Assembly (NCBI GenBank): GCA_041665885.1
Contig: JBAYHY010000003.1
Coordinates: 4,529-68,528 of the forward strand
Direction: 5' to 3'
DNA length: 64,000 nt
Origin: Minisyncoccota bacterium
Lineage (GTDB): Bacteria > Patescibacteriota > Minisyncoccia > Phycocordibacterales > UBA9973
Below are positions 11,222-58,444 of this stretch, one piece after another. The notes below the pieces were generated by a model. That model did no database searches. It saw nothing but the letters and a program-made list of their open reading frames with translations, and had not been told where the DNA came from. The position numbers were made by a program, and so were the translations under genes. How positions within the stretch are numbered: the first letter of the stretch is position 1; the number at the start of each line of letters is the position of its first letter.

Positions 11222-11243
11222 ATCTGTTTGTTTTCTAATGGAT

Positions 11244-11318: not shown

Positions 11319-11348
11319 CTATTTTGGCAAAAAGAGTAATATTAAAAA

Positions 11349-11371
11349 AGCCCTTGAAAGGGGGCTTTTTT
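11349..11371 (+). terminator. rho-independent terminator
   Basis: AGCCC-ttgaaagg-GGGCT followed by TTTTTT. Confidence 0.6.
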
Positions 11372-11388
11372 AAAATAATTATAAATAT

Positions 11389-11574: not shown

Positions 11575-11581
11575 ACTTACC

Positions 11582-12124: not shown

Positions 12125-12211
12125 GGAGCAATGCGACTATAAATTTATTGATGCCGCTTCGGCGGTATTAAGAGAATTGCATTAGAAAGTATTTTATAGT
12201 AATGTAAAAAA

Positions 12212-29713: not shown

Positions 29714-30127
29714 ATGGCAACAACAGAAACAAAAATAAAAAAACCAAAATCAAAAGTGGTTAAAACCACCAAGACTGCCAAAGCACCGAAGGTTTCTTCC
29801 AAAAAAGAAAAGACTGAAGGTGGAGTGGTGCTTCGCATCCGAGTTCGAGCTTACGAGAGCAAAATCTTAGATGCATCTATTAAACAGATTATGGATACCG
29901 CTACTCGTTATGATGCTGTGATTGTAGGTCCCGTACCGTTACCAACCGAAATAAAAAAATATACAGTCAATCGTTCTCCTTTTATTTACAAAAATACGCG
30001 AGAACAATTTGAAATAAGAGTGCACAAACGATTGATCGACATAATAAATCCAAACGCGAAGACCGTGGAGGCTCTGACGAACCTTTCCTTGCCTTCCGGA
30101 GTTGATATTGACGTAAAAATGATGTAA
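29714..30127 (+). CDS. rpsJ: 30S ribosomal protein S10 with Lys-rich N-terminal extension
   Basis: Core RIRVRAYESKILDASIKQIMDTATRYDAVIVGPVPLPTEIKKYTVNRSPF matches S10; about 35 extra K-rich N-terminal residues. Confidence 0.9.
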   Translation: MATTETKIKKPKSKVVKTTKTAKAPKVSSKKEKTEGGVVLRIRVRAYESKILDASIKQIMDTATRYDAVIVGPVPLPTEIKKYTVNRSPFIYKNTREQFEIRVHKRLIDIINPNAKTVEALTNLSLPSGVDIDVKMM

Positions 30128-30131
30128 CTAT

Positions 30132-30746
30132 ATGAAATTTATACTGGGAACAAAAGAAAATATGGCTGAGTATTTTTCCGAAGACGGAACGGTTTTCCCG
30201 GTGACGATAATTTCCGTGCCAGGAATAACAGTTACCAGAATCTTTGAAAAAGTAAAAGACGGCTATGATTCTGTTCAAGTAGGTTTCGGTCCTCAGAAAA
30301 AGGAAAGAGTCAGCAAAGGAAGTGCCGGAGCGATGAAGGGCGCATTCTACAAAACCCTAAAAGAATTTAGATTAAAACCCAGTGATAAAATTGAAGCAAA
30401 AGAAGGAGATACGATTGAAGTGGGTGTCTTCGCGCCGGGAGATAAGATAATAGTATCAAGTGTTTCTAAGGGTAAAGGTTTCCAGGGGGTCGTAAAGCGA
30501 CATGGATTCTCTGGTGGCCCACGCACCCACGGACAAAAACATTCAGAAAGAGAGCCCGGAAGTATCGGTGGCGGTCTCCGAACCCACGTTCCAAAAGGGA
30601 TGCGCATGGCTGGACGTATGGGCTCTGATCGCATAACTCAGAAGAATTTGAAAGTTGTTTTTGTGGATAAAGAAAATAAATTGTTGCTTGTCGGAGGAGC
30701 GATAGCCGGGAAGCGTGGAACTTTAGTCGAAATAGTGCAGAGATAA
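30132..30746 (+). CDS. rplC: 50S ribosomal protein L3
   Basis: Order after S10 and L3-like sequence (GKGFQGVVKRHGFSGGPRTHGQ). Confidence 0.9.
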   Translation: MKFILGTKENMAEYFSEDGTVFPVTIISVPGITVTRIFEKVKDGYDSVQVGFGPQKKERVSKGSAGAMKGAFYKTLKEFRLKPSDKIEAKEGDTIEVGVFAPGDKIIVSSVSKGKGFQGVVKRHGFSGGPRTHGQKHSEREPGSIGGGLRTHVPKGMRMAGRMGSDRITQKNLKVVFVDKENKLLLVGGAIAGKRGTLVEIVQR

Positions 30747-30750
30747 TCAT

Positions 30751-31410
30751 ATGGAAGCAAAAATTTACAACCAAAAAGGAACGGACGCCGGAACAATTGC
30801 ATTGCCTGCAAAAGTTTTTGCTGCTAAATGGCGAGCAGATTTGGTACATCAGGTCGTGGAAGGGATGCGTAGCAACAAGCGTTCCGGTACGGCTGATACC
30901 AAAGATCGTGGGGAAGTGCGCGGTGGAGGGAAAAAGCCCTGGAAACAAAAAGGAACTGGACGAGCACGACATGGCTCCAGCAGGAGTCCTATTTGGGTTG
31001 GCGGTGGAGTCACCCATGGTCCATTATCTGAAAAGAACTATAAAAGAAAAATTTCAAAGAAAATGCGCGCTCAGGCTCTCTTCTCGGTACTTTCCAAAAA
31101 ATTGAAAGACGGGGAAATTCTTTTTGTGGATACTCTTGCCTTGTCCGATATCAAAACCAAGAACGCATTAAAAACAATGCAGAATTTAGCAAAAGTTTCC
31201 GGGTTTAAGCCCTTGGCAAATTCAAAAAAACCCAGAGTCTTGACTGCCTTATTTGAACGTAATGAAAAAGCAGAAAAAAGTTTCAGAAATTTGCCACAGC
31301 TAGAAATTGTTTTCCTGAAAAACTTAAACCCGCTCGACGTGCTCAATCACCAGTATCTTTTAATAGAAAATCCAGCCGAGGCAGTAAAATTTTTAGAATC
31401 AAGAGGATAA
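30751..31410 (+). CDS. rplD: 50S ribosomal protein L4
   Basis: GGGKKPWKQKGTGRARHGS motif; position in operon. Confidence 0.9.
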   Translation: MEAKIYNQKGTDAGTIALPAKVFAAKWRADLVHQVVEGMRSNKRSGTADTKDRGEVRGGGKKPWKQKGTGRARHGSSRSPIWVGGGVTHGPLSEKNYKRKISKKMRAQALFSVLSKKLKDGEILFVDTLALSDIKTKNALKTMQNLAKVSGFKPLANSKKPRVLTALFERNEKAEKSFRNLPQLEIVFLKNLNPLDVLNHQYLLIENPAEAVKFLESRG

Positions 31411-31414
31411 TTTT

Positions 31415-31687
31415 ATGAGCTCACAAATAATAAAAAATCCAAGAATCACCGAAAAAGCATCTTTTCACGCAGAACAAAATGTTTACACTTTTGACGTTAC
31501 AAAACCCGCCAATAAAACAGAAATAAAAAAAGCGGTTTTTGCTCTCTATAAAGTGCATCCGACAAGGGTAAATATTTTAAATATTCCAAGGAAAAAGATT
31601 CTGTCCAAGGGGAAGACCGGAATCCGTGGCGGGGGGCGCAAGGCCTATGTTTATTTAAAAAAAGGAGATAAATTAGAATTTGTATAA
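31415..31687 (+). CDS. rplW: 50S ribosomal protein L23
   Basis: ITEKASFHAEQNVYTFDVTKPANKTEIKKAV pattern; position. Confidence 0.9.
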   Translation: MSSQIIKNPRITEKASFHAEQNVYTFDVTKPANKTEIKKAVFALYKVHPTRVNILNIPRKKILSKGKTGIRGGGRKAYVYLKKGDKLEFV

Positions 31688-31715
31688 TTTTCCGGTTAGG
31701 CGCAAATGAATTTTT

Positions 31716-32555
31716 ATGAAAACATATAAACCAACAACTAAATCAAGGAGACAAATGACCAACGTGAACTATCGCGGGATTTTGACTGCGACTAATCCAG
31801 AGAAATCTCTTACTCATGGATTCAAACGTTCGGTCGGGAGAAATAGTCAAGGGCGAGTTACCATGATGCACAAGGGTGGTGGGCACAAGCGCCTGTATCG
31901 TGAAGTTGATTTTTTATATAACAAAAAAGAAATTCCAGCTAAAATAAAATCTATTGAATATGATCCAAATCGTAGCGCTTTTATCGGTCTCGCCGTTTAT
32001 AAGGACGGAGAAAAAAGATATGTAATATTGCCGAAATCTGCAAAACCCGGAGATTCTTTTATCGTATCTCCCAATGCGTCACTTTCTTCTCTTAACAGAT
32101 TGCCTCTCAAAAATATTCCGGTTGGTACATTTGTTTACAATATTGAGTTGAAGCCAATGGGGGGTTCGAAGGTTGGACGTTCTGCGGGAATTTTCGCTCA
32201 AGTCGTGGCGAATGCCGATGGTTATACGAATGTGAAAATGCCTTCAACAGAAATTCGTAAAATAAATGAAAATTGCTGGGCTTGCGTGGGCACCGTTTCC
32301 AACGAAGAACATCATTTGGAAAACTATGGTAAGGCGGGGAGAAGTCGTTGGAAAGGTATAAAACCAAAAGTTCGTGGAACAGCGATGAATCCGGTAGATC
32401 ACCCATATGGAGGAGGAGAGGGCAGACAGGGACGAGGAACCAAAAGACCGAAGACTCGTTGGGGGAAAGTTACTGGAGGAAAGAAATCTCGCAGACCAAA
32501 GAAATACTCAAACGTTTTCATTGTTTCTCGCCGAAAAACAGGGAAAAACAAATAA
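31716..32555 (+). CDS. rplB: 50S ribosomal protein L2
   Basis: HKGGGHKRLYR and GTAMNPVDHPYGGGEG motifs. Confidence 0.95.
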   Translation: MKTYKPTTKSRRQMTNVNYRGILTATNPEKSLTHGFKRSVGRNSQGRVTMMHKGGGHKRLYREVDFLYNKKEIPAKIKSIEYDPNRSAFIGLAVYKDGEKRYVILPKSAKPGDSFIVSPNASLSSLNRLPLKNIPVGTFVYNIELKPMGGSKVGRSAGIFAQVVANADGYTNVKMPSTEIRKINENCWACVGTVSNEEHHLENYGKAGRSRWKGIKPKVRGTAMNPVDHPYGGGEGRQGRGTKRPKTRWGKVTGGKKSRRPKKYSNVFIVSRRKTGKNK

Positions 32556-32666
32556 AAGCACAAAAATAGAAAAACCCAGGACTAAATCCTGGGTTTTTCT
32601 TTATCCACACTTCATGTTGATTTTTTTTACGATAATAGCATAATGTTTTCTAGAGGAGGACAGAAT

Positions 32667-32789
32667 ATGTACTCGAAACCGAAGAGAGAGAGAAGGCAGG
32701 ATCGCAACACTGAACTTCGTTGGGCCAAGAATGCTCGCAAGGACAGAAGGTCCAAAAAGTGGGCCCTCAAGAAGTGTAAGAAGCGCTAA
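32667..32789 (+). CDS. unannotated 40-aa highly basic peptide (MYSKPKRERRQDRNTELRWAKNARKDRRSKKWALKKCKKR), GC-rich
   Basis: Not in ORF track (below 60 aa). Strong SD (tctaGAGGAGGacagaat) 7 nt before ATG 32667, in-frame TAA at 32787..32789, followed by a GC hairpin. Lies in an otherwise unexplained ~650-nt gap between rplB and rpsS. Confidence 0.35.
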   Translation: MYSKPKRERRQDRNTELRWAKNARKDRRSKKWALKKCKKR

Positions 32790-32902
32790 TATTCTGTTTG
32801 TACCATCGTGGCGTGTCCGGGTCCAATCCCCGGCGCGCCCTTTTGTTTTAATGCTTGCTTTATTTTTTTGATATGTTATAATATGTAAAGAAGGAGGAGC
32901 AA

Positions 32903-33085
32903 ATGAGCAAAAAGCAGAAGGATGGGGCCATCCAAGGTGGTCACGAAGAAGGTACCTGCCGGCAATGCTGCCGGGCCGAAAGGAGTAGGTCGTTGCCCGT
33001 CGGAACGTTTCCGTTGAAGCGATCCTTCGGGACCAAGTGCGGGGGAGACCCTTGCACCTGTCAGTATCTCGAGCGTCCGCAGTAA
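32903..33085 (+). CDS. 60-aa Cys-rich small protein (CRQCC...C..GGDPCTC), GC-rich
   Basis: Strong SD AAGGAGGAG upstream, six Cys in clustered motifs, followed by terminator hairpin AGGGGTCCC-tat-GGGGCCCCT + T6 at ~33108..33137. Confidence 0.35.
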   Translation: MSKKQKDGAIQGGHEEGTCRQCCRAERSRSLPVGTFPLKRSFGTKCGGDPCTCQYLERPQ

Positions 33086-33211
33086 AATTTCACTGCGGGC
33101 ACAAAACACAAGGGGTCCCTATGGGGCCCCTTTTTTCTTCCTATTTGACATTTAAACTGAATTTGCTATTATAAAACCAAGCTCGTTAGGAGCTTTTTGT
33201 TTGCATAAATT

Positions 33212-33565
33212 ATGACAAGATCAATCAAAAAAGGATTAAATGTTGATGAACGGCTCTTAAAAAAGATTGCCGGTAAAAACCCGTTGCAGACTCCGATGGT
33301 GAAGACGTGGAAAAGAGCTTGTGTTATTTCTCCGGAAATGCTCGGTTTCACTTTTGGCGTTTATAATGGTAAAACCCACCTCGAAGTTTTAGTTACTGAA
33401 GACATGGTTGGACACAGACTCGGAGAATTTTCCCCAACCAAGAAATTTATTAAACACGGAGGTAAGATGCAGAAAGAGCTTGAACAAAAGAAAAAGGAGG
33501 CCGAAATAACTCAAGCCAAGTCCGCAACAGCTGCTGCCGCTGACGCAAAAGGCGCGAAAAAATAA
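33212..33565 (+). CDS. rpsS: 30S ribosomal protein S19 (with C-terminal extension)
   Basis: TRSIKKG...PMVKTWKRACVISPEMLGFTFGVYNGKTH matches S19. Confidence 0.9.
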   Translation: MTRSIKKGLNVDERLLKKIAGKNPLQTPMVKTWKRACVISPEMLGFTFGVYNGKTHLEVLVTEDMVGHRLGEFSPTKKFIKHGGKMQKELEQKKKEAEITQAKSATAAAADAKGAKK

Positions 33566-33592
33566 CTACGAGCTTAACGCCACAAAAATATT

Positions 33593-33991
33593 ATGAAGGC
33601 TTTTTTAAAAAATTACAGACAATCACCAAGAAAAGTTCGTCTAGTTGCCGGACTGATTAAAGGAAAAAGTGTAGCGGAAGCAATTGCCGAGCTTGATTTT
33701 TTGGCTAAGCGCGCAGGGCTACCAATCAAAAAACTTTTACTTTCAGCGGTAGCCAATGCGAAAAACATGGGGATAGAGGCGGAGAATTTATTTATAAAGG
33801 AATTGCGAGTGGACAAGGGCATTGTGATGAAAAGAATGATGCCGGCTGCGATGGGCACAGGGCACAGAATCAACAAACGCACCAGCCACTTGAATCTTCT
33901 TTTGGCGGAAAAGGTTGTAAAAAAAGTCGCAAAGACCCTAGGCCATAAACATACGGGCGAGGCAAAAGTAAAAAAAGTAGTAAAAAAATAA
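33593..33991 (+). CDS. rplV: 50S ribosomal protein L22
   Basis: NYRQSPRKVRLVAGLIKGKSVAEAIAELDF typical L22 N-terminus. Confidence 0.9.
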   Translation: MKAFLKNYRQSPRKVRLVAGLIKGKSVAEAIAELDFLAKRAGLPIKKLLLSAVANAKNMGIEAENLFIKELRVDKGIVMKRMMPAAMGTGHRINKRTSHLNLLLAEKVVKKVAKTLGHKHTGEAKVKKVVKK

Positions 33992-33992
33992 A

Positions 33993-34718
33993 ATGAGTAA
34001 AACAGTTCACCCATATGCGCATAGGTTGGTTATCCTCCGAGATTGGAAGTCTCGCTGGTTTGCTGATCCGAAAAAATATTTGACCTATTTGAAAGGCGAC
34101 GTTTTAATTCGCCAATATTTGGAAAAGAAATTACGTACGATGTATGTTTCTAGTATTGAAATAGAAAGAAGTCGCAAGGCTACTCGTTTCATTATTAAAA
34201 CTTCTCGTCCGGGCCTTGTCATCGGGAGGTCTGGAGAAGGGGCGACAAAACTGAAAGAAGATATTTTGAAAAAAATGGACAATTTGAAACTTCCAAGGCC
34301 GGAAGACTTTAAGTTGGAAATTATGGAAGTTTCAAACCCGGAGGCGGATGCCGCTATCGTGGCTTACATGATTGCTGAAGCATTAGAGAAAAGGATGCCT
34401 TATCGTCGAGTAATAAAACAAATTATTGAGAAGGTTATGCAGGCGCATGGAGTGGAGGGAGCAAGAATTGTCCTTTCTGGACGATTGGGCGGAGCGGAAA
34501 TCGCTCGTACGGAAGAGCTTAAGCGGGGAAGTATTCCGCTTCAGACTTTCCGCGCGGACGTAGATTTTAAAAGAGAGAGAGCAACTCTCTCATATGGGGT
34601 TGTCGGTATTAAGGTGTGGATTTACCGAGGGAAAATTTTTGCTGAAAAGAAAAACGCCAAGAGCGCTTATAGTACTGCTCCAGCAAATGAAAAGGAAAAT
34701 AATTTAAAGACCGATTAG
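33993..34718 (+). CDS. rpsC: 30S ribosomal protein S3
   Basis: KVHPYAHRLVILRDWKSRWF and KH-domain region. Confidence 0.95.
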   Translation: MSKTVHPYAHRLVILRDWKSRWFADPKKYLTYLKGDVLIRQYLEKKLRTMYVSSIEIERSRKATRFIIKTSRPGLVIGRSGEGATKLKEDILKKMDNLKLPRPEDFKLEIMEVSNPEADAAIVAYMIAEALEKRMPYRRVIKQIIEKVMQAHGVEGARIVLSGRLGGAEIARTEELKRGSIPLQTFRADVDFKRERATLSYGVVGIKVWIYRGKIFAEKKNAKSAYSTAPANEKENNLKTD

Positions 34719-34746
34719 TCAATCAATAAATTTATTATAAAATATT

Positions 34747-35172
34747 ATGTTAGTACCGAAAAAAGTAAAATTTAGAAAATGGCAGTCAGGACGCTCTAAT
34801 CTCAAGAAGCGAACAGCGGATACGCGTGGCATTAAGCTTTCTTTTGGTTCCTACGGACTAAAAGCCGAATCCCAGGCACGAGTGAAATCAAACCAAATTG
34901 AGGCTGCCAGAAAAGTAATTTCCCGTACCCTTACCAAGACTGGTAAATATTGGGTTCGTATTTTTCCGGATCGCCCCTATACAGCTAAAGCCGCAGAGGT
35001 AGGCATGGGAAAAGGAAAAGGAGACCCGCAAGGGTATTGTTTTGATGTTCTTCCTGGACGTATTATTTTTGAAGTAGACGGAGCCGATGAAAAAGTTTCT
35101 CATGAAGCCCTAAGAAAAGCTGGAAGTAAATTGCCACTCAAAACCAGAATTGTCGGAAGAGTAAACGAATAA
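34747..35172 (+). CDS. rplP: 50S ribosomal protein L16
   Basis: MLVPKKVKFRKWQSGR...GIKLSFGSYGLKA. Confidence 0.95.
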   Translation: MLVPKKVKFRKWQSGRSNLKKRTADTRGIKLSFGSYGLKAESQARVKSNQIEAARKVISRTLTKTGKYWVRIFPDRPYTAKAAEVGMGKGKGDPQGYCFDVLPGRIIFEVDGADEKVSHEALRKAGSKLPLKTRIVGRVNE

Positions 35173-35181
35173 GATTATTTT

Positions 35182-35406
35182 ATGGCCAAAGCAAAGAAAC
35201 AAAATTATAAAGAAATGACCGGCGGAGAACTCGAAAAAGAATTGGTTGTTCTGCGAGAGAGCTTGCGGGGTATCCATTTCAAATCAGAGGGGGCGAGGTC
35301 AAAAAACGTCAAGGAACAAGCTACCCTAAAAAAGCAAGTTGCCAGGATTTTGACAGAAATAAATCATGCCAAAGGTCAGGTAAGCAAGAATATTAAAAAA
35401 CAATAA
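35182..35406 (+). CDS. rpmC: 50S ribosomal protein L29
   Basis: Size, position and [13 protein letters not shown] coiled-coil typical of L29. Confidence 0.85.
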
Positions 35407-35407
35407 T

Positions 35408-35674
35408 ATGGCAAAGAAAATACAAGAAAAGAATACAGAAAATAAAGGAAAATTTCTAAAAGGAGTGGTTGTTTCCGATAAGATGGACAAGACCATTGTT
35501 GTTTCTGTTTCCAGGTTTGTGAAGCACCCCCTTTACGGGAAATATTATCAAATCAACAAAAAATACAAAGCACATGACGAAGGGAATACTTATAAAGTTG
35601 GGGAAAAAGTAGAAATAGTGGAAACCAAGCCCATTTCTAAAGACAAAAAATTTAAAGTAGTAGAAAAACAATAA
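35408..35674 (+). CDS. rpsQ: 30S ribosomal protein S17
   Basis: [29 protein letters not shown] pattern. Confidence 0.9.
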
Positions 35675-35683
35675 TTTAATTTT

Positions 35684-36055
35684 ATGATTCAAAATGAAAC
35701 CCTAGTAAAAATAACAGACAATGCCGGAGGCACCGTGGGAAAGGTGTTCAAAATTTTAGGCTCCTCAAAAAAGAGATATGCAACTCTCGGTGAACTTGTT
35801 ATTATTTCCGTGAAGGTTGCTTCTCCGAGAAAAATGGTGAAAAAGAAAGACGTGCATCAGGCCGTCGTCGTGCGTACTCGCGGGGCTTATAGGCGAAAAG
35901 ACGGTTCATATATTCGTTTTGATGATAATGCCGTGGTGCTTCTCGAAAAAGGGAAGAAGGATCCAAAAGCCGGACGTATCTTCGGACCGATTCCACGAGA
36001 GCTTGCGGAAAAAGGGTTTCAAAAGATAATTTCTTTGGCTCAAGAAGTGATTTAA
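35684..36055 (+). CDS. rplN: 50S ribosomal protein L14
   Basis: MIQNETLVKITDNAGG...LGELVIISVK. Confidence 0.95.
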   Translation: MIQNETLVKITDNAGGTVGKVFKILGSSKKRYATLGELVIISVKVASPRKMVKKKDVHQAVVVRTRGAYRRKDGSYIRFDDNAVVLLEKGKKDPKAGRIFGPIPRELAEKGFQKIISLAQEVI

Positions 36056-36073
36056 TCTTTTAATATAATAAAT

Positions 36074-36292
36074 ATGAAATTAAAAAAAGGAGACAATGTA
36101 AAAATAATTACTGGAAAGGACAAAGGGAAGTCCGGGAAAATAGTGCGTGCATTGCCGAAAATGAATAAAGTTATTGTCGAGGGGCTGAACATGGCAAAGA
36201 AACACCAGCGTCCAAGAAAGACGGGGGAGAAGGGCACAATGATGAGTGTCGCCATGCCGATCCACGTTTCCAATGTTAAAAAAGCAGATTAA
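36074..36292 (+). CDS. rplX: 50S ribosomal protein L24
   Basis: MKLKKGDNVKIITGKDKGKSGKIV KOW motif. Confidence 0.9.
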   Translation: MKLKKGDNVKIITGKDKGKSGKIVRALPKMNKVIVEGLNMAKKHQRPRKTGEKGTMMSVAMPIHVSNVKKAD

Positions 36293-36303
36293 CGATATAT
36301 TTT

Positions 36304-36852
36304 ATGAAACATTTAACCGTAAAAGAAAAAGAGATAGAGGCCTTTTCAAAAATGAAAGATGTTTTTCATTTTAAAAATGCGATGGCGGCCCCGAAGCTCA
36401 AAAAAGTAGTAATCAATGTCGGCACCGGTACTGCCATGAAGAAAGACAAGAATAAGAATGATGCTATTGCTGATAGAATTGCAAAAATCTCCGGACAAAG
36501 GGCAGCTCTCCGAGGCGCCAAGCAGTCTATTTCTTCTTTCAAAATCCGCCAAGGAGATCCTGTCGGAATAGTGGTTACCCTCCGTGGCAAGAGAATGTTT
36601 GCTTTCTTGGAAAAATTAATTAACGTAGCTCTTCCACGCACGAAGGACTTTCGTGGGATTAACCGCACTGCCGTGGATGATATCGGAAATTTAACTTTGG
36701 GCATCAAAGAACACACCATTTTCCCGGAAACAGCCGATGAAGATATTCGCGACGTTTTCGGTTTGTCCATCACCCTTGTTTCCACCGCCAAAAACAAAAA
36801 AGAAGGCACCGCCTTCTTTGAAATCCTCGGTATTCCTTTTAAAAAGGAATAA
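36304..36852 (+). CDS. rplE: 50S ribosomal protein L5
   Basis: L5 core (PKLKKVVINVG ... FAFLEKLINVALPRTKDFRG). Confidence 0.95.
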   Translation: MKHLTVKEKEIEAFSKMKDVFHFKNAMAAPKLKKVVINVGTGTAMKKDKNKNDAIADRIAKISGQRAALRGAKQSISSFKIRQGDPVGIVVTLRGKRMFAFLEKLINVALPRTKDFRGINRTAVDDIGNLTLGIKEHTIFPETADEDIRDVFGLSITLVSTAKNKKEGTAFFEILGIPFKKE

Positions 36853-36861
36853 AACTATCTA

Positions 36862-36889
36862 TTGACTTTTTGTGTAAATATGCTATCAT
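36862..36889 (+). promoter_or_regulatory. sigma70-like promoter (TTGACT-16 nt-TATCAT) for the DGR target gene
   Basis: Read directly; near-consensus -35 and -10, placed ~35 nt before the conserved leader hairpin. Confidence 0.45.
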
Positions 36890-36923
36890 TTTAAGATAGT
36901 TCTTTAAAATCACTTGCGAAAAT

Positions 36924-37006
36924 GGTCATAGCCAAAAGGTGCTTAATTTTAGGCATTTCCTGGCTATGACCAACGATGGTCAAGTCCCCAACTCACGGGC
37001 AGTGAG
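36924..37006 (+). ncRNA. conserved structured 5' leader element (copy B) of the DGR target gene
   Basis: Outer stem GGTCATAGCC / GGCTATGACC (perfect 10 bp), inner hairpin GTGCTTA-attt-TAGGCAT, downstream hairpin CTCAC-gggca-GTGAG. C-to-T in the 5' arm relative to copy A is matched by G-to-A in the 3' arm. Confidence 0.55.
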
Positions 37007-37047
37007 AAACCTCTCGGCAGGAAGTCGAGAAGAAAGGCAAGGGCAAC

Positions 37048-37656
37048 ATGAAATACGGAGAATTGAATCTCGGTCAGATCGAAGCGGTTGTAAACAAACT
37101 CGGCGGCATGGAGGGAGTCAACCGATTCCTCCGAGATGAACTGATGGTTTCTGAACCAGCTCACCGTTTTCGTGTGGAGAATGGTGTCATCTACCTGTCC
37201 GTCACTTCCGACGGTACCACTGGCCCAGAGTGGACCAAGCGTCTCGAGAAGAAAGGGTATCGTCTCGGCGACTACGCCAAGCAGATCCTTTGCTCGAAGG
37301 ACTTCAAGCCCACCAAGGACGTCACCACCAAGATTGCTATCCTGAAAGGGACGCTCTTCTCGGACGAAGACCGCATCACAGAGAAGATTCGCACCGAAGC
37401 CGCCAAGCGGAACCTCACGAAACCGAACGCCGAAGTGGCTTGCCTCATCCGGGAGAACTTCTCGGACGAAGAGCTCGAAGCCATGGGTCTCATTTGGGTC
37501 GTCATCATGCACGAACCCATCAAGGATTCCGATGGCGACCCGCGTCTCCTCGACGCGGGCCGCGATGTCGAGGGCGGGTGGCTCGACGCCAATTACGACT
37601 ACCCTGTCAGCAGGTGGGCTCGTGACGATGGTTTCGCTTTCGTTTCGCAAGCGTAG
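37048..37656 (+). CDS. DGR target (variable) protein, GC-rich; C-terminal 42 codons form the variable repeat
   Basis: C-terminus DSDGDPRLLDAGRDVEGGWLDANYDYPVSRWARDDGFAFVSQA is the diversified counterpart of the Asn-rich TR-encoded peptide. NxxNPDNRxNxxGFR-like ending resembles C-type-lectin-fold DGR variable regions. Confidence 0.85.
   Translation: MKYGELNLGQIEAVVNKLGGMEGVNRFLRDELMVSEPAHRFRVENGVIYLSVTSDGTTGPEWTKRLEKKGYRLGDYAKQILCSKDFKPTKDVTTKIAILKGTLFSDEDRITEKIRTEAAKRNLTKPNAEVACLIRENFSDEELEAMGLIWVVIMHEPIKDSDGDPRLLDAGRDVEGGWLDANYDYPVSRWARDDGFAFVSQA
37527..37651 (+). repeat. DGR variable repeat (VR) at the 3' end of the target gene
   Basis: 125 nt aligned base-for-base with TR 37989..38113: 110 identities, 15 mismatches, every mismatch an A in TR (e.g. 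aac/gac, aat/cgt, aac/ggc, gac/gtc, aac/tac, aat/gct). Identical ~40-nt 3' segment ggtttcgctttcgtttcgcaag (IMH-like). Confidence 0.9.
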
Positions 37657-37707
37657 TACTCTAAACTGGGTCACTGTGGTCTTTTAGACACTTTGATCTT
37701 TGCATCC

Positions 37708-37740
37708 GGCCCCCGAACTTTGTTCGGGGGCCATTTTCAT
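37708..37740 (+). terminator. GC hairpin + T-run immediately downstream of VR (terminator and candidate DGR cis hairpin)
   Basis: GGCCCCCGAAC-ttt-GTTCGGGGGCC followed by ATTTTCATTTT. Confidence 0.7.
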
Positions 37741-37988
37741 TTTGTCTTGAAGATTTGTTATACTGAAAATGGTAATAGGTGAATATGTGGGAAATTACGG
37801 TTTCCCGCCACCGAATCCAGTATCCATGCGCCCGGAGTATCCGCGATTATAATTTCGGATAGAGTGGTGCATGCAGAAACTTCAAAAAAGAAGATACTTG
37901 GCACGAAATATTAGGGCATTACGATGCCGAATACGATACAGCTTTGAGAGAATTCAAGGAGCAGTGGCATGGATGATATTTCGTGCAT

Positions 37989-38113
37989 TTCCGATGGCAA
38001 CCCGAATCTCCTCAACGCGAACCGCAATGACGAGGGCAGGTGGCTCAACGCCAATTACGACAACCCTGACAACAGGTGGAATCGTGACGATGGTTTCGCT
38101 TTCGTTTCGCAAG
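37989..38113 (+). repeat. DGR template repeat (TR), adenine-rich (encodes an Asn-rich frame)
   Basis: Non-coding copy of VR. In the VR frame it reads SDGNPNLLNANRNDEGRWLNANYDNPDNRWNRDDGFAFVSQ; AAC/AAT at every diversified codon. Sits between target gene and avd. Confidence 0.9.
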
Positions 38114-38118
38114 TTTTT

Positions 38119-38484
38119 TCATTTCTCTCTCGCTTTTACGGCGGGAGAGTTTTGTTTTTGGAGTTGTCCATTCCAACCCCCGAGCATTTTTCCAATTTCC
38201 TCTATTTTTACAGACAGAGCAATATATTTTTTATCGTCTATTGATTTTGCTTCCCACAGCACCATCAAAAGTATTTTCAAGGTATCTATTTTTCTAATTG
38301 CCAACCGAACCCACGGGCTTTTTTCTTCCCGAGACAAAAAAGTAGCGGTAGAAATTGCTTCAATAATTTCAATAAACAAAATATCTATCTTTTGTCCGAG
38401 GGAGTATTTATGTATTTTAGGCAAAGTTTGGTAAAAAGTAATCCAAATTAGATAACAGCTCTTAACTTTTGCCAGTACTGGCAA
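38119..38484 (-). CDS. avd: Avd-like DGR accessory variability determinant (four-helix-bundle protein)
   Basis: 121-aa basic helical protein; YSLGQKIDILFIEIIEAISTA...KIEEIGKMLGGW resembles Avd/four-helix-bundle family. Sits between TR and RT. Confidence 0.75.
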   Translation of the reverse strand: MPVLAKVKSCYLIWITFYQTLPKIHKYSLGQKIDILFIEIIEAISTATFLSREEKSPWVRLAIRKIDTLKILLMVLWEAKSIDDKKYIALSVKIEEIGKMLGGWNGQLQKQNSPAVKAREK

Positions 38485-38502
38485 AAGTTGGGGGGGGGGG
38501 GG
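38471..38502. promoter_or_regulatory. 12-nt perfect palindrome GCCAGTACTGGC followed by a 13-G homopolymer in the avd/RT divergent intergenic region
   Basis: Read directly: ttttGCCAGTACTGGCaaaagttGGGGGGGGGGGGGtact, between avd start (38484, minus) and RT start (38519). Confidence 0.6.
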
Positions 38503-38518
38503 TACTATTATAAATACT

Positions 38519-39550
38519 ATGTCCCATATTCAATTTATTCATACTTACGATACTATCACTTCTATTGAAAATTTGCTTCTGGCGTGGAAAGAATTTATTC
38601 TTGGCAAGAAGAATCGTAAAGATGTGCAAGAGTTTGAAAGGAATTTAATGACTAACATTATTCTGCTGCATCAAGACTTAGTAAATAAAACATACAAACA
38701 TTCTCAATATGAAGCATTTAATATTTCTGATCCGAAACCGCGGAATATTCACAAGGCGAAAGTGCGAGATAGGTTACTGCATCACGCTATTTGTCGAGTG
38801 CTTTATCTGTTTTTTGATAGAACATTTATTACCGACTCCTATTCGTGCAGAGTAAACAAAGGAACCCATAAAGCGATAAATAGGTTTAGAAAGTTTGCTT
38901 ATCAGGCATCAAAAAACCATACGAAAACGGTTTGGGTTTTAAAAGGAGATATAAAAAAGTTTTTTGCTAACATTAACCACAATATTTTAAAATCAATTCT
39001 TAAAGAACACATACAGGACAAAAATATTTTATGGCTTTTGTTTCAAATTGTAGATAGTTTTTATACTCAAAATTCAATCTACGCTATAGCGGAGATAAAA
39101 AAAGGTCTTCCTTTGGGTAATTTAACTTCGCAACTGCTGGTAAATATTTATATGAATGAATTTGACCAATTTATGAAACATAAAATTAAGGCGAAATATT
39201 ATATTCGTTATGCGGACGATTTTGTAATTTTATCTAGTGACAAAAAATGGCTGATAAATATATTGCCTCAAATAAAAGATTTTCTAGAAAACGAACTCAA
39301 GCTTTCTTTGCATCCCACAAAACTATCAATAAGCACGGTTGCCTCGGGCGTAGATTTTCTGGGTTGGGTTTTGTTTCCAGACCATAGAGTGGTTAGAACT
39401 ATTACCAAACAAAGAATGTTTAGGGGCATAAAAAAGAAACAAGGAAATTTTGAAACGGTGCAATCCTACCTAGGGTTACTTAGTCATGGTAATGCAAGGG
39501 GGCTAGAATGGAAAGTCAGGAACGATTCAGGGTTTAGTAGTGAAATTTGA
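38519..39550 (+). CDS. DGR-type reverse transcriptase
   Basis: RT motifs including YIRYADDFVIL (YxDD box) and the DGR-specific GLPLGNLTSQLLVNIYM (GxxxSQ in place of the QGxxxSP of group II/retron RTs). 343 aa. Confidence 0.9.
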   Translation: MSHIQFIHTYDTITSIENLLLAWKEFILGKKNRKDVQEFERNLMTNIILLHQDLVNKTYKHSQYEAFNISDPKPRNIHKAKVRDRLLHHAICRVLYLFFDRTFITDSYSCRVNKGTHKAINRFRKFAYQASKNHTKTVWVLKGDIKKFFANINHNILKSILKEHIQDKNILWLLFQIVDSFYTQNSIYAIAEIKKGLPLGNLTSQLLVNIYMNEFDQFMKHKIKAKYYIRYADDFVILSSDKKWLINILPQIKDFLENELKLSLHPTKLSISTVASGVDFLGWVLFPDHRVVRTITKQRMFRGIKKKQGNFETVQSYLGLLSHGNARGLEWKVRNDSGFSSEI

Positions 39551-39757
39551 CTCTTTTGGGATTATTTGCTAATATCAGAGCAAGGGAATATGGCTTTGAT
39601 TAATCCACTTTTCTCCTTTAAATTCATGCTCTCCTCTCCTTCGGGGAGGTCGGGAGGGGTTTAAAGAAAAAAAGTGACCCGTTCGAGTAGAACTCAGGGT
39701 CATGGTGAGTGAAAACGAACCATGAGATATTAACAGGGCAATCCTGATAAATTATTT

Positions 39758-39943
39758 ATGGCAAAAACATCAGTAAAAGCTAGGGCAGCAAAAAAACCAA
39801 AATTCTCTACACGACAGAAAAATCGATGTTTTCGTTGCGGGCGAGGAAATGGTTTTATGCGTGATTTTGGCATCTGTCGTATTTGTTTCAGAGAATTAGC
39901 AAACGAAGGAATGCTTCCAGGTGTTAGAAAATCTTCTTGGTAG
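39758..39943 (+). CDS. rpsZ: 30S ribosomal protein S14 (Zn-ribbon type Z)
   Basis: 61 aa with [25 protein letters not shown]. Confidence 0.95.
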
Positions 39944-39954
39944 AATAAAATTTT

Positions 39955-40341
39955 ATGGATCAAATTTCAAATATGATAATAATAATGAAGAACGGAAGCT
40001 TGGCAGGCAAGGATACTGTAGCTTTTCCATATTCAAAGATGAAAAACGCGATTGCTGAATGTTTGAAGAAAGATGGCTATATTTCTGAAGTTTCTAAAAA
40101 AACAAAAAATGGACAACCGGTTTTAGAAGTCGAACTTATTTACATAGATAAAAAACCAAAAATTACTGAAGTGGAAAGAATTTCTAAACAATCCCGCCGG
40201 GTTTATTTCGGCATGAAAGACATTCATTCTGTCAGGAACGGTTCAGGCTTGCTGGTGCTTTCTACCCCCAAGGGGATTTTATCAGGTAAAGATGCTCGCA
40301 AAGAACAAGTCGGAGGCGAAGCCTTGTTTAGGCTGTGGTAG
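39955..40341 (+). CDS. rpsH: 30S ribosomal protein S8
   Basis: Position and conserved IIIMKNG...AIAECLKKDGYI pattern. Confidence 0.9.
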   Translation: MDQISNMIIIMKNGSLAGKDTVAFPYSKMKNAIAECLKKDGYISEVSKKTKNGQPVLEVELIYIDKKPKITEVERISKQSRRVYFGMKDIHSVRNGSGLLVLSTPKGILSGKDARKEQVGGEALFRLW

Positions 40342-40361
40342 TTTTTTTAGGTAATAAATAT

Positions 40362-40895
40362 ATGAGTAGAATAGGCAAACAAGAAATCTTAATACCAGCC
40401 GGAGTAAAAGTCACCCAAAGTGGCGATGTCATTACTGTCGTGGGCCCCAAGGGAACCCTTACTAAAATTTTTAGAGACGACATTGCCATTACTATTACCG
40501 ACAAAATGATAACTTTAAATATTAAAAGAAACGATAAGTTTTCCAAATCGCTCTGGGGCACTTATGCTTCACATATCAAGAATATGATCAAGGGGGTAGA
40601 GACTCCATATCAAAAGAAATTAATTTTGGAAGGGGTTGGTTTTAAGTCTGAGGTCAAGGGAAAAGAATTTCATTTTGCTCTTGGTTTTTCTCATCCCGTT
40701 GTCGTCGCTATTCCCGAAGGGATTACCGCCACCGCCGAGAAGAACGTCATTACTATTACTGGTATTGATAAAGAATTAGTCGGGAGTTTTACCGCAGCAA
40801 TTCGTGCTTTGAAAAAGCCGGAACCATATAAAGGTAAAGGCATGCGTTACGAAGGGGAAGTTATCAGACGAAAACAAGGTAAAAAGACCGTATAA
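40362..40895 (+). CDS. rplF: 50S ribosomal protein L6
   Basis: MSRIGKQEILIPAGVKVT... tandem alpha/beta domains; start set at internal ATG 40362. Confidence 0.9.
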   Translation: MSRIGKQEILIPAGVKVTQSGDVITVVGPKGTLTKIFRDDIAITITDKMITLNIKRNDKFSKSLWGTYASHIKNMIKGVETPYQKKLILEGVGFKSEVKGKEFHFALGFSHPVVVAIPEGITATAEKNVITITGIDKELVGSFTAAIRALKKPEPYKGKGMRYEGEVIRRKQGKKTV

Positions 40896-40900
40896 ATAAA

Positions 40901-41242
40901 ATGATTAAAAAAACAGACAAAAGAATAAGACTGAAGAAAAAAATCAGAGTAAAGATTAAGGGCACAGATGCGCGCCCACGTCTGACTGTTTTTCGTTCCA
41001 ATAAATTTATTTATGCGCAAGTTATTAATGACATGACGGGGAAAACTTTGGTTCAGGCGAGTGATGCAAAGATAAAAAAAGGAACCAAGACAGAAAGAGC
41101 CAAAGAAGTAGGAAAGGCCATCGGAGCTGCTTGTCTTGCCGCCAAAATTAAAAAAGTGGTTTTTGACCGCAACGGATTTAAATACACCGGAAGAATAAAA
41201 TTAGTAGCCGACGAAGCTAGGGCCGGGGGTCTAGAATTTTAA
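40901..41242 (+). CDS. rplR: 50S ribosomal protein L18
   Basis: RPRLTVFRSNKFIYAQVINDMTGKTLVQAS. Confidence 0.9.
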   Translation: MIKKTDKRIRLKKKIRVKIKGTDARPRLTVFRSNKFIYAQVINDMTGKTLVQASDAKIKKGTKTERAKEVGKAIGAACLAAKIKKVVFDRNGFKYTGRIKLVADEARAGGLEF

Positions 41243-41246
41243 TATT

Positions 41247-41843
41247 ATGGAAAAGACAAAAGACAACACAAAAGATAATACAAGAGGAAAGAGAAACAGC
41301 GGTCGTCGAGGATCGTCCTTCAATAGAGTGAAACCTGAATTTGATCAGAAGATTTTGAATATTCGTCGAGTTACTCGTGTTGTCGCTGGTGGTCGCAGAT
41401 TCTCTTTTTCCGTTGCTCTAGTGGCGGGAGATGGGAAGGGGGCTGTGGGGCTTGGCTTAGGAAAAGCCGGAGACACGGCTTTGGCTATCAACAAAGCGCT
41501 TCGAAATGCAAAGAAAAATATGGTTAGATTAAAACTCACGAAAACGATGTCTATCCCGCATGAACTGCATGCCAAATTTTCAAGTTCGCGTGTCATGTTG
41601 AAGCCGAATAAGGGCCGTGGGTTAGTCGCTGGGTCTGTGCTTCGTGATATTATCAATCTTTCCGGCGTGAAGGATATTACAGGAAAAATTTTGTCCAACA
41701 GCAAGAACAAATTGAACAATGCTAAAGCAGTAATGGCAGCTTTGGCTACTATTTCTATAAAATATGAAAAAATAGTTCCAGGAGCTACCGTTGTCGCTAA
41801 TAAGGAAGTTATTGTTCCGGAAATTGAAAAAGAATCCCAGTAG
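41247..41843 (+). CDS. rpsE: 30S ribosomal protein S5
   Basis: VTRVVAGGRRFSFSVALVAGDGKGAVGLGLGKA dsRBD core. Confidence 0.95.
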   Translation: MEKTKDNTKDNTRGKRNSGRRGSSFNRVKPEFDQKILNIRRVTRVVAGGRRFSFSVALVAGDGKGAVGLGLGKAGDTALAINKALRNAKKNMVRLKLTKTMSIPHELHAKFSSSRVMLKPNKGRGLVAGSVLRDIINLSGVKDITGKILSNSKNKLNNAKAVMAALATISIKYEKIVPGATVVANKEVIVPEIEKESQ

Positions 41844-41880
41844 TAGAGTAGAGCTCACTACGGGACAAGTAATAAAATAT

Positions 41881-42207
41881 ATGCAAATACATAATTTAAA
41901 AAGAGTACATAAGAATAAAAAAGACAGGATTGTTGGCCGTGGTGGCAAACATGCCAAGACTTCTGGTCGCGGAGGCAAGGGGCAGACGGCCAGAGCAGGG
42001 AACAAGCGCCGTCCAGAGCTTCGTGATATTATTAAGAAATTACCTAAGAATCGTGGATATCAATTCAAGTCTATTCAAAAAGTATATATCCTAAAGAAGG
42101 ACAAGCTCGTCTCTCAAAAAGATACAAAGAAAAACACCAAGCAAGAAAGTTTTTCTGAAATTAGAAAACGATTGGGAATCAAGGGAAAAAAAATCAGAAT
42201 AAAATAA
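41881..42207 (+). CDS. rplO: 50S ribosomal protein L15
   Basis: IVGRGGKHAKTSGRGGKGQTARAG motif; start set at ATG 41881. No L30 gene between S5 and L15. Confidence 0.85.
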   Translation: MQIHNLKRVHKNKKDRIVGRGGKHAKTSGRGGKGQTARAGNKRRPELRDIIKKLPKNRGYQFKSIQKVYILKKDKLVSQKDTKKNTKQESFSEIRKRLGIKGKKIRIK

Positions 42208-58098: not shown

Positions 58099-58172
58099 CC
58101 GTCCTTAGCTCAGCTGGTTAGAGCACAGAGCTTATACCTCTGGGGTCCTTGGTTCGAATCCAAGAGGACGGA
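58099..58172 (+). tRNA. tRNA-Ile (anticodon TAT)
   Basis: Acceptor CCGTCCT/AGGACGG, D-arm TAGCTCAGCTGGTTAGAGCA, anticodon stem CAGAG/CTCTG with loop CTTATAC, T-arm CTTGG-TTCGAAT-CCAAG, discriminator A. Confidence 0.8.
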
Positions 58173-58444
58173 CTTTTTTGAAAAACAAAACCGCAAGGTT
58201 TTGTTTTTTTGCTGTTTATTATATTAGAAATTGTATTTTTGGCTTCGTCAAGTTGATAATTTTTGAGAAAGCGTAGAAAGCGAGAAAAATTTTAATGGAA
58301 AAAAGCAAAGAAAACAACCACGAATCAAAAAATTTTTAAAATATGCCTTGTTTTATTTTTTTTATGTTGCTTAACGTATTTTTCCCGCCAAATTAACAAA
58401 AAATACTTTACTCGGAAAAATAATTTCGTGTATAATAAAGCCCC

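Follow-up and report, generated by a model that had tools for sequence, protein, structure and literature searches.

INTRODUCTION

In a diversity-generating retroelement (DGR) a reverse transcriptase (RT) serves to rewrite the tip of one binding protein. The variable repeat (VR), usually at the C-terminus of a target with a C-type-lectin or Ig fold, differs from a template repeat (TR) almost only at TR adenines, and most DGRs have the accessory protein Avd. The first survey of DGRs in the ultra-small CPR bacteria (Patescibacteria) is said to be that of Paul et al. in 2017. The architecture B3, 'TR-(avd)-RT', found in CPR, was defined by Wu et al. 2018 (PMC5758913), who also reported five CPR DGRs that have ribosomal protein genes inside them and an inverted repeat after the IMH in only 34% of DGRs; DGR clade 2, that of CPR/Patescibacteria, was described by Roux et al. 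2021 (PMC8144416). The DGR of the Bordetella phage BPP-1 has the order mtd-avd-TR-brt and a DGR RNA (Handa et al. 2018, PMC6182149). It needs RNA on both sides of TR, and its two duplexes are adjacent (Handa et al., 10.1101/2023.10.23.563531).

Here we describe a DGR cassette of ~2.7 kb in a window of 64 000 nt, by which we mean the whole stretch of DNA that was analysed. The cassette is complete, with a 202-aa target of C-type-lectin fold, TR, Avd on the opposite strand, and RT (Table 1). The repeat pair at its core very probably belongs to a genuine and entire CPR (Patescibacteria)-type DGR, which lies between rplE and rpsN in a Paceibacterota genome. It is of the known CPR 'TR-(avd)-RT' type, B3 of Wu 2018 and clade 2 of Roux 2021; the host is CPR and the order and strands of TR, avd and RT in Table 1 are those of B3. 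With the CPR DGRs of these two studies it shares the host group, the cell-encoded location, the order target-TR-avd(reverse)-RT, a target with no recognisable domain or membrane anchor, the C-terminal VR and the adenine-specific mismatches. It is thus one more CPR DGR beside the thousands catalogued. What sets it apart among the 81 loci compared is that the whole cassette lies in the S10-spc cluster.

Table 1. Features of the cassette and its flanks (positions in the window)
Feature	Position	Strand	Remarks
rplE (L5)	36304..36852	+	left flank of insertion
Promoter-like site of target gene	36862..36889	+	TTGACT-16-TATCAT with TG; 10/12 matches
Structured 5′ leader of target mRNA	36897..37047	+	long hairpin 36923-36972; two smaller ones between it and the SD
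Target gene, 202 aa	37048..37656	+	C-type-lectin-like fold
VR	37527..37651	+	last 42 codons of target gene
Intrinsic-terminator-like hairpin (11 bp) and T-run	37708..37742	+	57 nt downstream of VR
Extended -10 promoter-like box of TR transcript	37754..37762	+	TGtTATACT; read from sequence
Structured RNA domain (~220 nt)	37770..37987	+	directly 5′ of TR; nine helices
Near-invariant strand GAAGAUACUUG	37890..37900	+	proposed partner 38110-38120
TR	37989..38113	+	mutagenesis window 37989-38090; invariant 3′ end 38092-38113
avd (accessory variability determinant), 121 aa	38119..38484	-	TTG start; convergent with TR
Hairpin 38125-38149 and invariant GUUUUGUUUU	38125..38160	+	directly 3′ of TR; terminator-like
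13-G simple-sequence repeat	38490..38502	.	between avd start and RT start
DGR reverse transcriptase, 343 aa	38519..39550	+	YADD and LPLGNLTSQ motifs
rpsN (S14, zinc type)	39758..39943	+	right flank of insertion

RESULTS

The VR/TR repeat pair

The ungapped alignment of VR with TR covers 125 nt at an offset of 462 and contains 15 mismatches, at every one of which the TR base is A (10 A to G, three A to T and two A to C). TR has 32 adenines, 15 of which are changed in VR, while the 93 non-A sites of the repeat show no difference; the hypergeometric probability that 15 of 15 mismatches fall on a TR adenine is 6e-11. An independent repeat search within 30000-42000 returned the pair as its top direct repeat (D1), and low complexity was excluded. 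Realignment reproduces exactly what a sequence-only reading had claimed for these coordinates, namely 15 mismatches over 125 nt, all at template adenines, and the 12 codon changes that it listed are all correct at codon level; neither a chance low-complexity match nor a non-A mismatch, the two outcomes it had named as counting against it, was found. TR translates as SDGNPNLLNANRNDEGRWLNANYDNPDNRWNRDDGFAFVSQ and VR as SDGDPRLLDAGRDVEGGWLDANYDYPVSRWARDDGFAFVSQ, with 31 of the 32 TR adenines in codon positions 1-2.

Identity at the 3′ end extends over 32 nt (37620-37651), shorter than the ~40 nt of the earlier reading. Relatives can have changes at two TR adenines inside this stretch, 38087 and 38090, which reduces the family-invariant, IMH-like part to the final 22 nt (TR 38092-38113). 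This 22-nt end is nearly A-free and not GC-rich, and VR and TR diverge right after it. The sole hairpin after VR is the terminator-like one of Table 1; none that is GC-rich follows VR directly. The adenines of the CAAG at the TR end were substituted in 0 of 38 loci; this is consistent with a terminal CAAG that is base-paired and left uncopied.

The target gene

The -35 box of the target promoter-like site starts 10 nt past the rplE stop codon, at what is the 5′ edge of the cassette, and related loci keep TTGACAA-17-TATAAT at the equivalent place. The structured leader (I6 in the repeat search) has 17 predicted pairs, 12 of them with compensatory changes across 40 loci. In the alignment of related loci the terminator-like hairpin downstream of the gene is kept too, again with compensatory changes. 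Neither the leader nor the RNAs flanking TR matched an Rfam family, at gathering thresholds over the whole window or at E up to 10 over 36800-39800.

The target protein has no Pfam family and no evident signal peptide, and a PDB sequence search with its profile gave nothing useful; only the fold search assigned a class, a C-type-lectin-like fold with VR at its C-terminus. The protein is apparently cytoplasmic and soluble. This exact protein occurs on two contigs and forms a 90% cluster of one, within a family of >1,700 clusters present in 290 of 185,579 species genomes, in which variability is restricted to adenine-templated codons. Because the family is large, 65-72% identical outside VR and apparently cytoplasmic, it is a good candidate for learning what CPR bacteria diversify, and why.

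Accessory gene and reverse transcriptase

Avd matches PF22296 (bAvd) with 41.4 bits, above the gathering score of 40, and NF033474 (NCBIfam) with E=1.8e-16 and 60.4 bits, under the curated cut-off of 80; phmmer found no match for it in PDB. Its TTG start comes right after a 13-C run and has no obvious SD, and a run of 13 G puts the alternative ATG (38527-38525) out of frame. Since the start is uncertain in this way, Avd could be OFF. In relatives without the simple-sequence repeat (SSR) the avd start is also non-ATG, next to LPVL.

By sequence comparison the RT is of the DGR lineage and closest to the Bordetella phage bRT: its best PDB relative is bRT 8ub7 (E=2e-40, versus 3e-20 for group II intron or retron RTs), and it matches RVT_1 with E=1e-26. 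Its LGxLTSQ is a DGR motif and fits motif 4 of the lineage, [LIV]GxxxSQ. The RT stop (39550) is the 3′ edge of cassette homology; 39551-39757 lies outside the cassette, because nothing is conserved downstream of that stop. The ORFs of RT, avd and target are all intact.

RNA structure around TR

A TATAAT-like box is kept in 41 loci at the alignment column of the TR-transcript promoter-like box, and the conserved TR RNA begins 7-8 nt downstream of the extended -10. The domain 5′ of TR has 54 pairs, with 97% of cells paired as against 37-51% when the partners are slid. Double changes occur in 41 of these pairs, a level reached in 0 of 500 shuffles. Its covariance model scores 235.7 bits (E ~1e-63) at this site, the sole match in the window, with the conserved helices all intact, and the model adjoins a TR in 71 instances. 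A 12-bp helix (37901-37912/37975-37986) ends 2 nt before TR; it is 98% paired, and 10 of its 12 pairs covary.

The strand 37890-37912 of the domain has proposed partners at both TR ends. Its first part would pair with 38110-38120, which comprises 4 nt at the end of TR and 7 nt at the start of the 3′ flank. This TR-closing helix is 87% paired (8.6 of 11 positions, versus 3.9-5.7 in shifted registers), with double changes in 3 of 10 pairs; independent substitutions are few, and C faces C in 33 of the 39 sequences. The covariation thus lends modest support to the idea that the GAAGAUACUUG strand closes TR into a loop.

Immediately 3′ of TR, the hairpin 38125-38149 has double changes in 7 of 8 pairs. 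Together with GUUUUGUUUU it overlaps the C-terminal codons of avd on the other strand, where the third-codon-position entropy of avd is ~1.0 bit, versus 1.4-1.6 elsewhere. This hairpin and U-tract, ~50 nt, are all that is conserved beyond coding needs 3′ of TR; the flank is otherwise antisense avd. Long-range pairings between the 5′ domain and GUUUUGUUUU also came out of a column scan; we rejected them, since any purine run will pair with a U-tract that does not vary. The 220-nt domain, the target leader and the SSR between avd and RT are not mentioned in the texts of Wu 2018 or Roux 2021.

Simple-sequence repeat at the avd and RT starts

The 13-G run sits in an 18-nt spacer between TGGCAA (38479-38484) and TACTAT (38503-38508, 10 nt before the RT ATG). 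An SSR is found at the avd/RT junction in 31 of 40 loci, as G8-13 or as arrays of (TTGG), (TGGC) or (TTGA), and among the loci compared this junction holds 28 of the 32 G/C runs of at least 8 and all five tetranucleotide arrays. The tetranucleotide units vary from 2 to 12 copies while the flanks are 90-97% identical, and in one locus (L029) two paralogous junctions have G8 and G9. When SSR loci were tested for the frame of avd, 9 were in frame and 20 out, which is the chance ratio; in the tetranucleotide sub-lineage 6 of 11 loci are in frame with compensating indels, which is suggestive.

Contingency loci of this kind include the poly-G or poly-C promoter spacers of Neisseria porA/opc and the tetranucleotide repeats in 5′ coding regions of Haemophilus. 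The avd/RT repeat resembles them in its make-up (a homopolymer or tetranucleotide array) and its site (a promoter spacer or the 5′ end of a gene), in the turnover of repeat type at a fixed position, in copy numbers that differ among near-identical sequences, and in extreme enrichment of the tract at one functional site. It differs in its uncultured CPR host, in that switching of avd/RT is putative, and in that the genes controlled would be a mutagenesis machine (avd, RT) and not a surface antigen. On these sequence features, the repeat may be a phase-variation switch. If so, one hypermutation mechanism would gate another, and such gating would bear on the ways in which cells hold down the cost of targeted mutagenesis. 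The genome has a comparable G9 promoter spacer ahead of a small ORF and fusA, and a spacer with a G-run is therefore not by itself a sign of ON/OFF switching.

Related loci

Layout and adenine bias are repeated in 44 related loci; of the 723 mismatches there, 703 fall on a TR adenine. With this bias and the full cassette (RT, Avd, target), the sequence-only reading's attribution of the repeat to adenine-specific mutagenic retrohoming by a DGR is borne out. The geometry is constant in ~40 loci: target stop, ~330 nt, TR, ~7 nt, avd stop (-), avd start, 30-60 nt, RT. Two relatives, L091 and L092, are identical over ~1.25 kb except at 15 VR sites, 14 of them adenine-templated, and live diversification is seen in these relatives only. 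In about 25 of 80 related genomes the target gene remains but has no TR, avd or RT nearby, a count made after ~10 indel-bearing TRs, missed by the ungapped TR search, had been recovered by the covariance model.

We saw no evidence of phage carriage of the cassette in IMG/VR, by 20-mer or at protein level. A 20-mer of the RNA domain matched three IMG/VR contigs, all by chance within unrelated genes, and the single protein-level candidate was an orphan homolog (42%) on a viral contig, with neither TR nor RT.

Alternative explanations

An ordinary duplication, or a match due to chance or low complexity, with an accidental adenine bias, has next to no probability as the origin of the repeat. The TR region is moderately A-rich, to the extent of the 32 adenines in 125 nt, but the P for 15 of 15 mismatches on A is 6e-11, the sequence is not of low complexity, RT and Avd adjoin the repeat, and the bias is replicated in 44 independent loci. 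A more serious rival is that the VR/TR pair records past homing by a DGR that has stopped working, the window copy being now silent or decaying, for example with Avd unmade. With 13 G the upstream avd ATG is out of frame, which leaves only the TTG lacking an SD; no alternative VR allele of the window copy was present in the databases searched, where the earlier reading had proposed a comparison across strains; and machinery loss is common, given the ~25 of 80 related genomes that keep the target alone. We nevertheless consider a silent copy unlikely. RT, avd and target ORFs are intact, non-A sites show 0 differences over 93, every conserved RNA helix is intact (236 bits against the model), the split of 9 in frame to 20 out is the chance ratio, and in SSR-less relatives avd likewise begins with a codon other than ATG, next to LPVL. 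The sequence-only reading had called the element recently active. The 93 unchanged non-A sites and the intact RT and target ORFs favour that claim, and on their account the last homing event of the window copy was probably recent; the missing second VR allele and the ambiguous avd start tell against it, and we infer recent activity of this copy, having observed it in relatives.

The position in the operon could also be an assembly chimera, the true cassette lying elsewhere in this or another genome. The sequence is a metagenome assembly, the GC of the target gene (54-64%) differs from that of the flanks (~41%), and such a position occurs in just one of 81 loci. However, a 71-kb JGI contig and an NCBI MAG have identical junctions, the gene order on either side is canonical (L24-L5, cassette, S14-S8-L6), the insertion is exactly intergenic, 10 nt past the rplE stop, the GC contrast is typical of the whole clade (target mean 0.53 versus 0.43 in flanks, with RT and avd at 0.38), and the operon carries another inserted-looking module, between rplB and rpsS. 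A chimera is on this evidence very improbable.

Proposed mechanism and comparison with BPP-1

The analysis shows the repeats and their adenine bias, which genes are present, the covariation of paired RNA bases and the fold class of the target; the steps proposed here are modelled on the DGR of the Bordetella phage. A non-coding transcript of its own, ~390 nt long (~37770-38160), would run from the extended -10 promoter to the hairpin and U-tract, and putative promoter and terminator sites are found where such a model expects them. It would consist of the 220-nt structured 5′ domain, the 125-nt TR and the 3′ hairpin, and would be bound by RT and Avd. The strand 37890-37912 of the 5′ domain would pair with the 3′ end of TR and may set the start of cDNA synthesis; unbroken, the same strand would also pair just upstream of TR, where the 12-bp helix would stop the cDNA at the TR 5′ edge. 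RT would copy TR faithfully save at adenines, and the cDNA would replace VR, with homology through the invariant 22-nt 3′ end. In this way 12-20 codons would be rewritten on the face by which a small, apparently cytoplasmic protein of C-type-lectin fold binds its ligand.

Like BPP-1, the cassette has an RT homologous over its full length (the E=2e-40 above), an Avd, a CLec-fold target, adenine mutagenesis, and a TR flanked by essential-looking structured RNA. The hairpin just 3′ of TR is in the same position as the Avd-binding stem-loop of BPP-1 and of other DGRs, and the ~12-bp helix at the TR 5′ edge in that of the BPP-1 cPRT-stop duplex; Avd binding and stop function are putative here. In both, one RNA strand pairs, here by proposal, with the TR 3′ end and then with a segment upstream of TR. 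Unlike BPP-1, the window has avd on the opposite strand and downstream of TR, and its two-duplex strand is 5′ of TR in the 220-nt domain, whereas that of BPP-1 is 3′, in the 140-nt Sp. Past TR, conserved RNA continues here for only ~50 nt, antisense over avd codons, and an Sp RNA of BPP-1 type 3′ of TR, supplying primer strand and stop duplex, is not found in the window cassette. BPP-1 is moreover phage-borne and its target a tail fibre, while the window element is cellular with a 202-aa soluble target, and the GC-rich cruciform adjacent to the IMH is absent directly after the window VR.

A tentative and somewhat doubtful reading is that in this clade of CPR DGRs the DGR RNA is circularly permuted and the elements themselves undergo phase variation. 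The strand equivalent to the Bordetella 'spacer' (template:primer and stop duplex) would have moved upstream of TR and become part of a structured 220-nt domain that has a promoter of its own, so that the downstream flank would be free for an inverted avd. The genes avd and RT would start back-to-back around a hypermutable SSR (poly-G or tetranucleotide array), whose slippage would turn the mutagenesis machinery on or off in a stochastic manner, with the consequence that only a sub-population would diversify the target at any time. The covarying RNA around TR offers a testable, sequence-defined model of cDNA priming and termination in a 'TR-(avd)-RT' DGR with no downstream spacer, and would tell whether the Bordetella RNP architecture has been conserved by permutation.

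Insertion in the ribosomal operon

Among the 81 loci compared, the window is the only one with the cassette between rplE and rpsN, and the insertion shows that in CPR genomes this operon can be interrupted. A promoter-like site (39547-39575) lies upstream of rpsN. The gap between rplB and rpsS of the same operon, where the other module lies, contains two small ORFs.

Variable and template repeats

The sequence-only reading had proposed a variable repeat (VR) and template repeat (TR) of a diversity-generating retroelement (DGR). The two align ungapped over 125 nt at an offset of 462 nt, and an independent repeat search of 30000-42000 returned this pair as the top direct repeat. As claimed, all 15 mismatches fall on a TR adenine (A>G 10, A>T 3, A>C 2). 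Of 32 adenines in the TR, 15 are replaced in the VR, and P = 6e-11 for 15 random mismatches all landing on adenines. The 12 codon changes listed earlier are all correct, and 31 of the 32 adenines occupy the first or second codon position. An identical 3′ end is also present, at a measured 32 nt rather than the ~40 nt first estimated; its invariant part is only the last 22 nt (TR 38092-38113), because adenines 38087 and 38090 vary in relatives, where 43-51% of elements have them substituted. Adenine-specific mutagenic retrohoming is thus supported as the explanation, both by the cassette genes and by the same pattern in relatives.

Recent activity had been claimed as well, and this stands directly for the clade. 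The loci L091 and L092, contigs from related JGI samples, have identical TRs and flanks identical over ~1.25 kb, while their VRs (L091 805-932, L092 564-691) show 15 differences, 14 of them adenine-templated. These are live alleles in the clade, so that the comparison of VR alleles between strains, proposed earlier as a check, is positive in relatives. For the window's copy the evidence is indirect: intact ORFs, intact conserved RNA helices throughout, and 93 non-A repeat sites without a single VR/TR difference would all fit recent activity. The databases searched yielded no second VR allele of this copy; the exact target protein is found there on two contigs, in a cluster with no other member.

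Cassette and genomic position

The repeats are enclosed in a compact 2.7 kb cassette (see table), a new CPR-type DGR of the known architecture B3, 'TR-(avd)-RT', which accounts for 90% of CPR DGRs (Wu et al. 2018, PMC5758913). Its interest beyond that of an ordinary DGR lies, at clade level, in a covarying RNA domain whose predicted topology is Bordetella-like but permuted and in a hypervariable repeat at the avd and RT starts, and, for this copy, in a ribosomal-operon position.

Features of the DGR cassette, in window coordinates
Feature	Position	Size	Remarks
Promoter-like site	36862-36889		near-consensus; ahead of target-gene leader
Target-gene leader	36897-37047	150 nt	conserved, structured
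Target ORF	37048-37656	202 aa	last 42 codons are the VR
VR	37527-37651	125 nt
Terminator-like hairpin	37708-37732		after target ORF
Extended -10 box	37754-37762		ahead of the non-coding stretch
Non-coding structured stretch	37770-37987	~220 nt	between -10 box and TR
TR	37989-38113	125 nt
avd (accessory variability determinant)	38484-38119		opposite strand; 6 nt past TR; Pfam bAvd above threshold; NF033474 E=2e-16
G-run	38490-38502	13 G	between avd and RT starts
RT (reverse transcriptase)	38519-39550	343 aa

The target mRNA leader contains a long hairpin (36923-36972) with compensatory changes in 12 of 17 pairs, and two more hairpins 5′ of the SD. The cassette lies between rplE (L5, end 36852) and rpsN (S14, start 39758), within the S10-spc ribosomal cluster; the contig carries the annotation Candidatus Paceibacterota. 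Among the loci compared, only the window has its cassette in a ribosomal cluster; five CPR DGRs with nested ribosomal genes have been mentioned (Wu et al. 2018, PMC5758913).

The normally tight rplB-rpsS junction of the window contains a 650-nt insert (32556-33211), a second module of foreign appearance within this ribosomal cluster. Its two ORFs are small and GC-rich, one encoding 40 aa (32668-32790, very basic) and the other 60 aa (32904-33085, Cys-rich); a promoter-like box, SD and terminator hairpin accompany each. Elsewhere in the window, a 130-aa ORF (25027-25419), in whose vicinity no CRISPR array was noticed, matches a PaaX central / Cas2-like domain (E=1e-13), and ARAGORN calls a tRNA-Ile (anticodon TAT) at 58099-58173.

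Target family and related loci

The target is one member of a large family that has no annotation (1744 clusters at E<=1e-3, ~205 aa, 65-72% identical). Host range and domain-less targets agree with DGR clade 2 of Roux et al. 2021 (PMC8144416). In a 40-member alignment the first 165 residues are strongly conserved, and variation is limited to positions that TR adenines template. Scanning a single genome per species gave 290 relatives, and the best 80 of these, spanning many CPR lineages, were used for locus comparison. A VR/TR pair was found in 44 of the 80 loci, with 703 of 723 mismatches at TR adenines. The geometry is constant: target stop, ~330 nt, TR, ~7 nt, avd stop (minus strand), avd start, 30-60 nt, RT. 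Of the 80 loci, about 25 (including L003, L008, L012, L013, L020, L026, L031, L042, L043, L051, L057, L058, L061 and L065) encode a full-length target homolog, but neither TR nor avd, RT or RNA domain was found up to 10 kb away. Such genes may be relics, or else orphan or remote targets. A 42% homolog of the target is also present on one IMG/VR viral contig (L100).

In one sub-lineage (L022, L027, L036, L044, L050, L055, L056, L070 and L083-L096) cassettes from MAGs placed in different CPR classes share 90-95% DNA identity. This identity suggests horizontal spread, although mis-binning could contribute to it. In the related loci target genes are consistently the GC-richest part, with a mean of 0.53 vs 0.43 for their flanks and 0.38 for avd and RT; together with the cassette identity, the excess of ~10 points of target over host flanks points either to horizontal cassette movement or to a composition constraint on the target.

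Structured RNA around the TR

Conservation is high across the ~220 nt separating the -10 box from the TR, for which nine helices are predicted. In the 5′ domain, 97% of cells are paired across 39 sequences, compared with 37-51% when partners are slid by 1-3 columns, and 41 of 54 pairs are retained through double changes (at most 21 in slid controls, 0/500 shuffles); loop insertions of several loci map to its hairpin loops. A covariance model has a single match in the 64-kb window (37770-37987, 236 bits) and 70 further instances in related loci, all on the TR strand. One of them adjoins an unrelated TR in L029, a locus with two tandem DGR cores (8350-9775 and 10001-12440). The 5′ RNA domain, 3′ hairpin, avd and G-run recur in its upstream core, which has the unrelated TR and a split RT; the target VR between the cores holds an in-frame TAG. 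Rfam has no family matching the TR-flanking RNA of the window.

A 12-bp helix (37901-37912/37975-37986) ends 2 nt 5′ of the TR and is 98% paired, with double changes in 10 pairs. Directly 3′ of the TR, a hairpin of ~9 bp (38125-38149; 7 of 8 pairs covary) is followed by an invariant GUUUUGUUUU, together terminator-like. The hairpin overlaps the final avd codons on the other strand, where third-position entropy is ~1.0 bit vs 1.4-1.6. The avd C-terminal tail (codons 100-121; window 38108-38121) is antisense to this hairpin and its U-tract. Variable hairpin loop length is at the same time variable Avd tail length, and both coding and RNA therefore constrain this stretch.

A near-invariant GAAGAUACUUG (37890-37900) immediately adjoins the 5′ strand of the 12-bp helix and can pair with 38110-38120, the last 4 nt of the TR and the first 7 nt past it. 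This putative helix is modestly supported: 87% of cells are paired, with a mean of 8.6 of 11 positions vs 3.9-5.7 in shifted registers, and double changes occur in 3 of 10 pairs, but independent changes are few and one position is C-C in most sequences.

In Bordetella phage BPP-1, cDNA synthesis requires RNA flanking the TR at both ends. The downstream spacer RNA (Sp) pairs with the TR 3′ end as the template:primer duplex; two nucleotides on, the same strand pairs upstream of the TR, forming a duplex that halts synthesis, and a stem-loop just past the TR binds Avd (Handa et al., 10.1101/2023.10.23.563531). In our clade, in contrast, the downstream flank is antisense avd, with only the stem-loop conserved; strand 37890-37912 would form the same two adjacent duplexes in the same 5′-to-3′ order, but it lies upstream of the TR. 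Its polarity suits priming: extension from its 3′ side would copy from ~38109 toward 37989 and run into the 12-bp helix. Both adenines of the terminal CAAG of the TR are never substituted (38 loci), as the model would predict for a segment that is paired and not copied. From the adjacent duplexes, their polarity and the unsubstituted CAAG we propose that the TR has a discrete ~390-nt transcript carrying a permuted Sp-like element. The survey of Handa et al. (10.1101/2023.10.23.563531) took in no more than 40 nt 5′ and 100 nt 3′ of each TR, and would therefore miss this domain.

Simple-sequence repeat at the avd/RT junction

In 31 of 40 loci a simple-sequence repeat separates the divergent starts of avd and RT. 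Of these, 26 have a G-run (8-13 nt) and five a tetranucleotide array, (TTGG)10-11, (TGGC)6-8 or (TTGA)7. Across 1.13 Mb of related loci, these junctions hold 28 of the 32 G/C runs of at least 8 nt and all five arrays. Copy number varies in one sub-lineage with flanks 90-97% identical (2, 2-3, 3, 8, 10, 11, 11, 12), and the two paralogous junctions of L029 differ solely by G8 vs G9.

In the window, the 13 G occupy the 18-nt spacer of TGGCAA/TACTAT, 10 nt 5′ of the RT ATG and, on the other strand, 5 nt upstream of the avd TTG. An alternative avd ATG lies further upstream, opposite the first RT codons; the 13 G of this copy put it out of frame, and a run of 12 or 15 would put it in frame. Frame counts across the repeat (9 in frame vs 20 out overall; 6 of 11 in frame in the tetranucleotide group, with compensating flank indels) do not tell whether it is translated. 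The repeat may act on the mutagenesis genes as a slipped-strand switch; our literature search found no paper tying phase variation to DGRs. A G9 run also occupies the 18-nt spacer of a TTGACA...TACACT promoter-like site (25485-25525) upstream of a 92-aa hypothetical ORF and fusA (EF-G), a 'G-run + TAC..T' layout that matches the one at the start of RT. The G-run spacer is therefore not DGR-specific here and need not be an ON/OFF switch. A third G9 of the window (22963-22971) is within a terminator stem.
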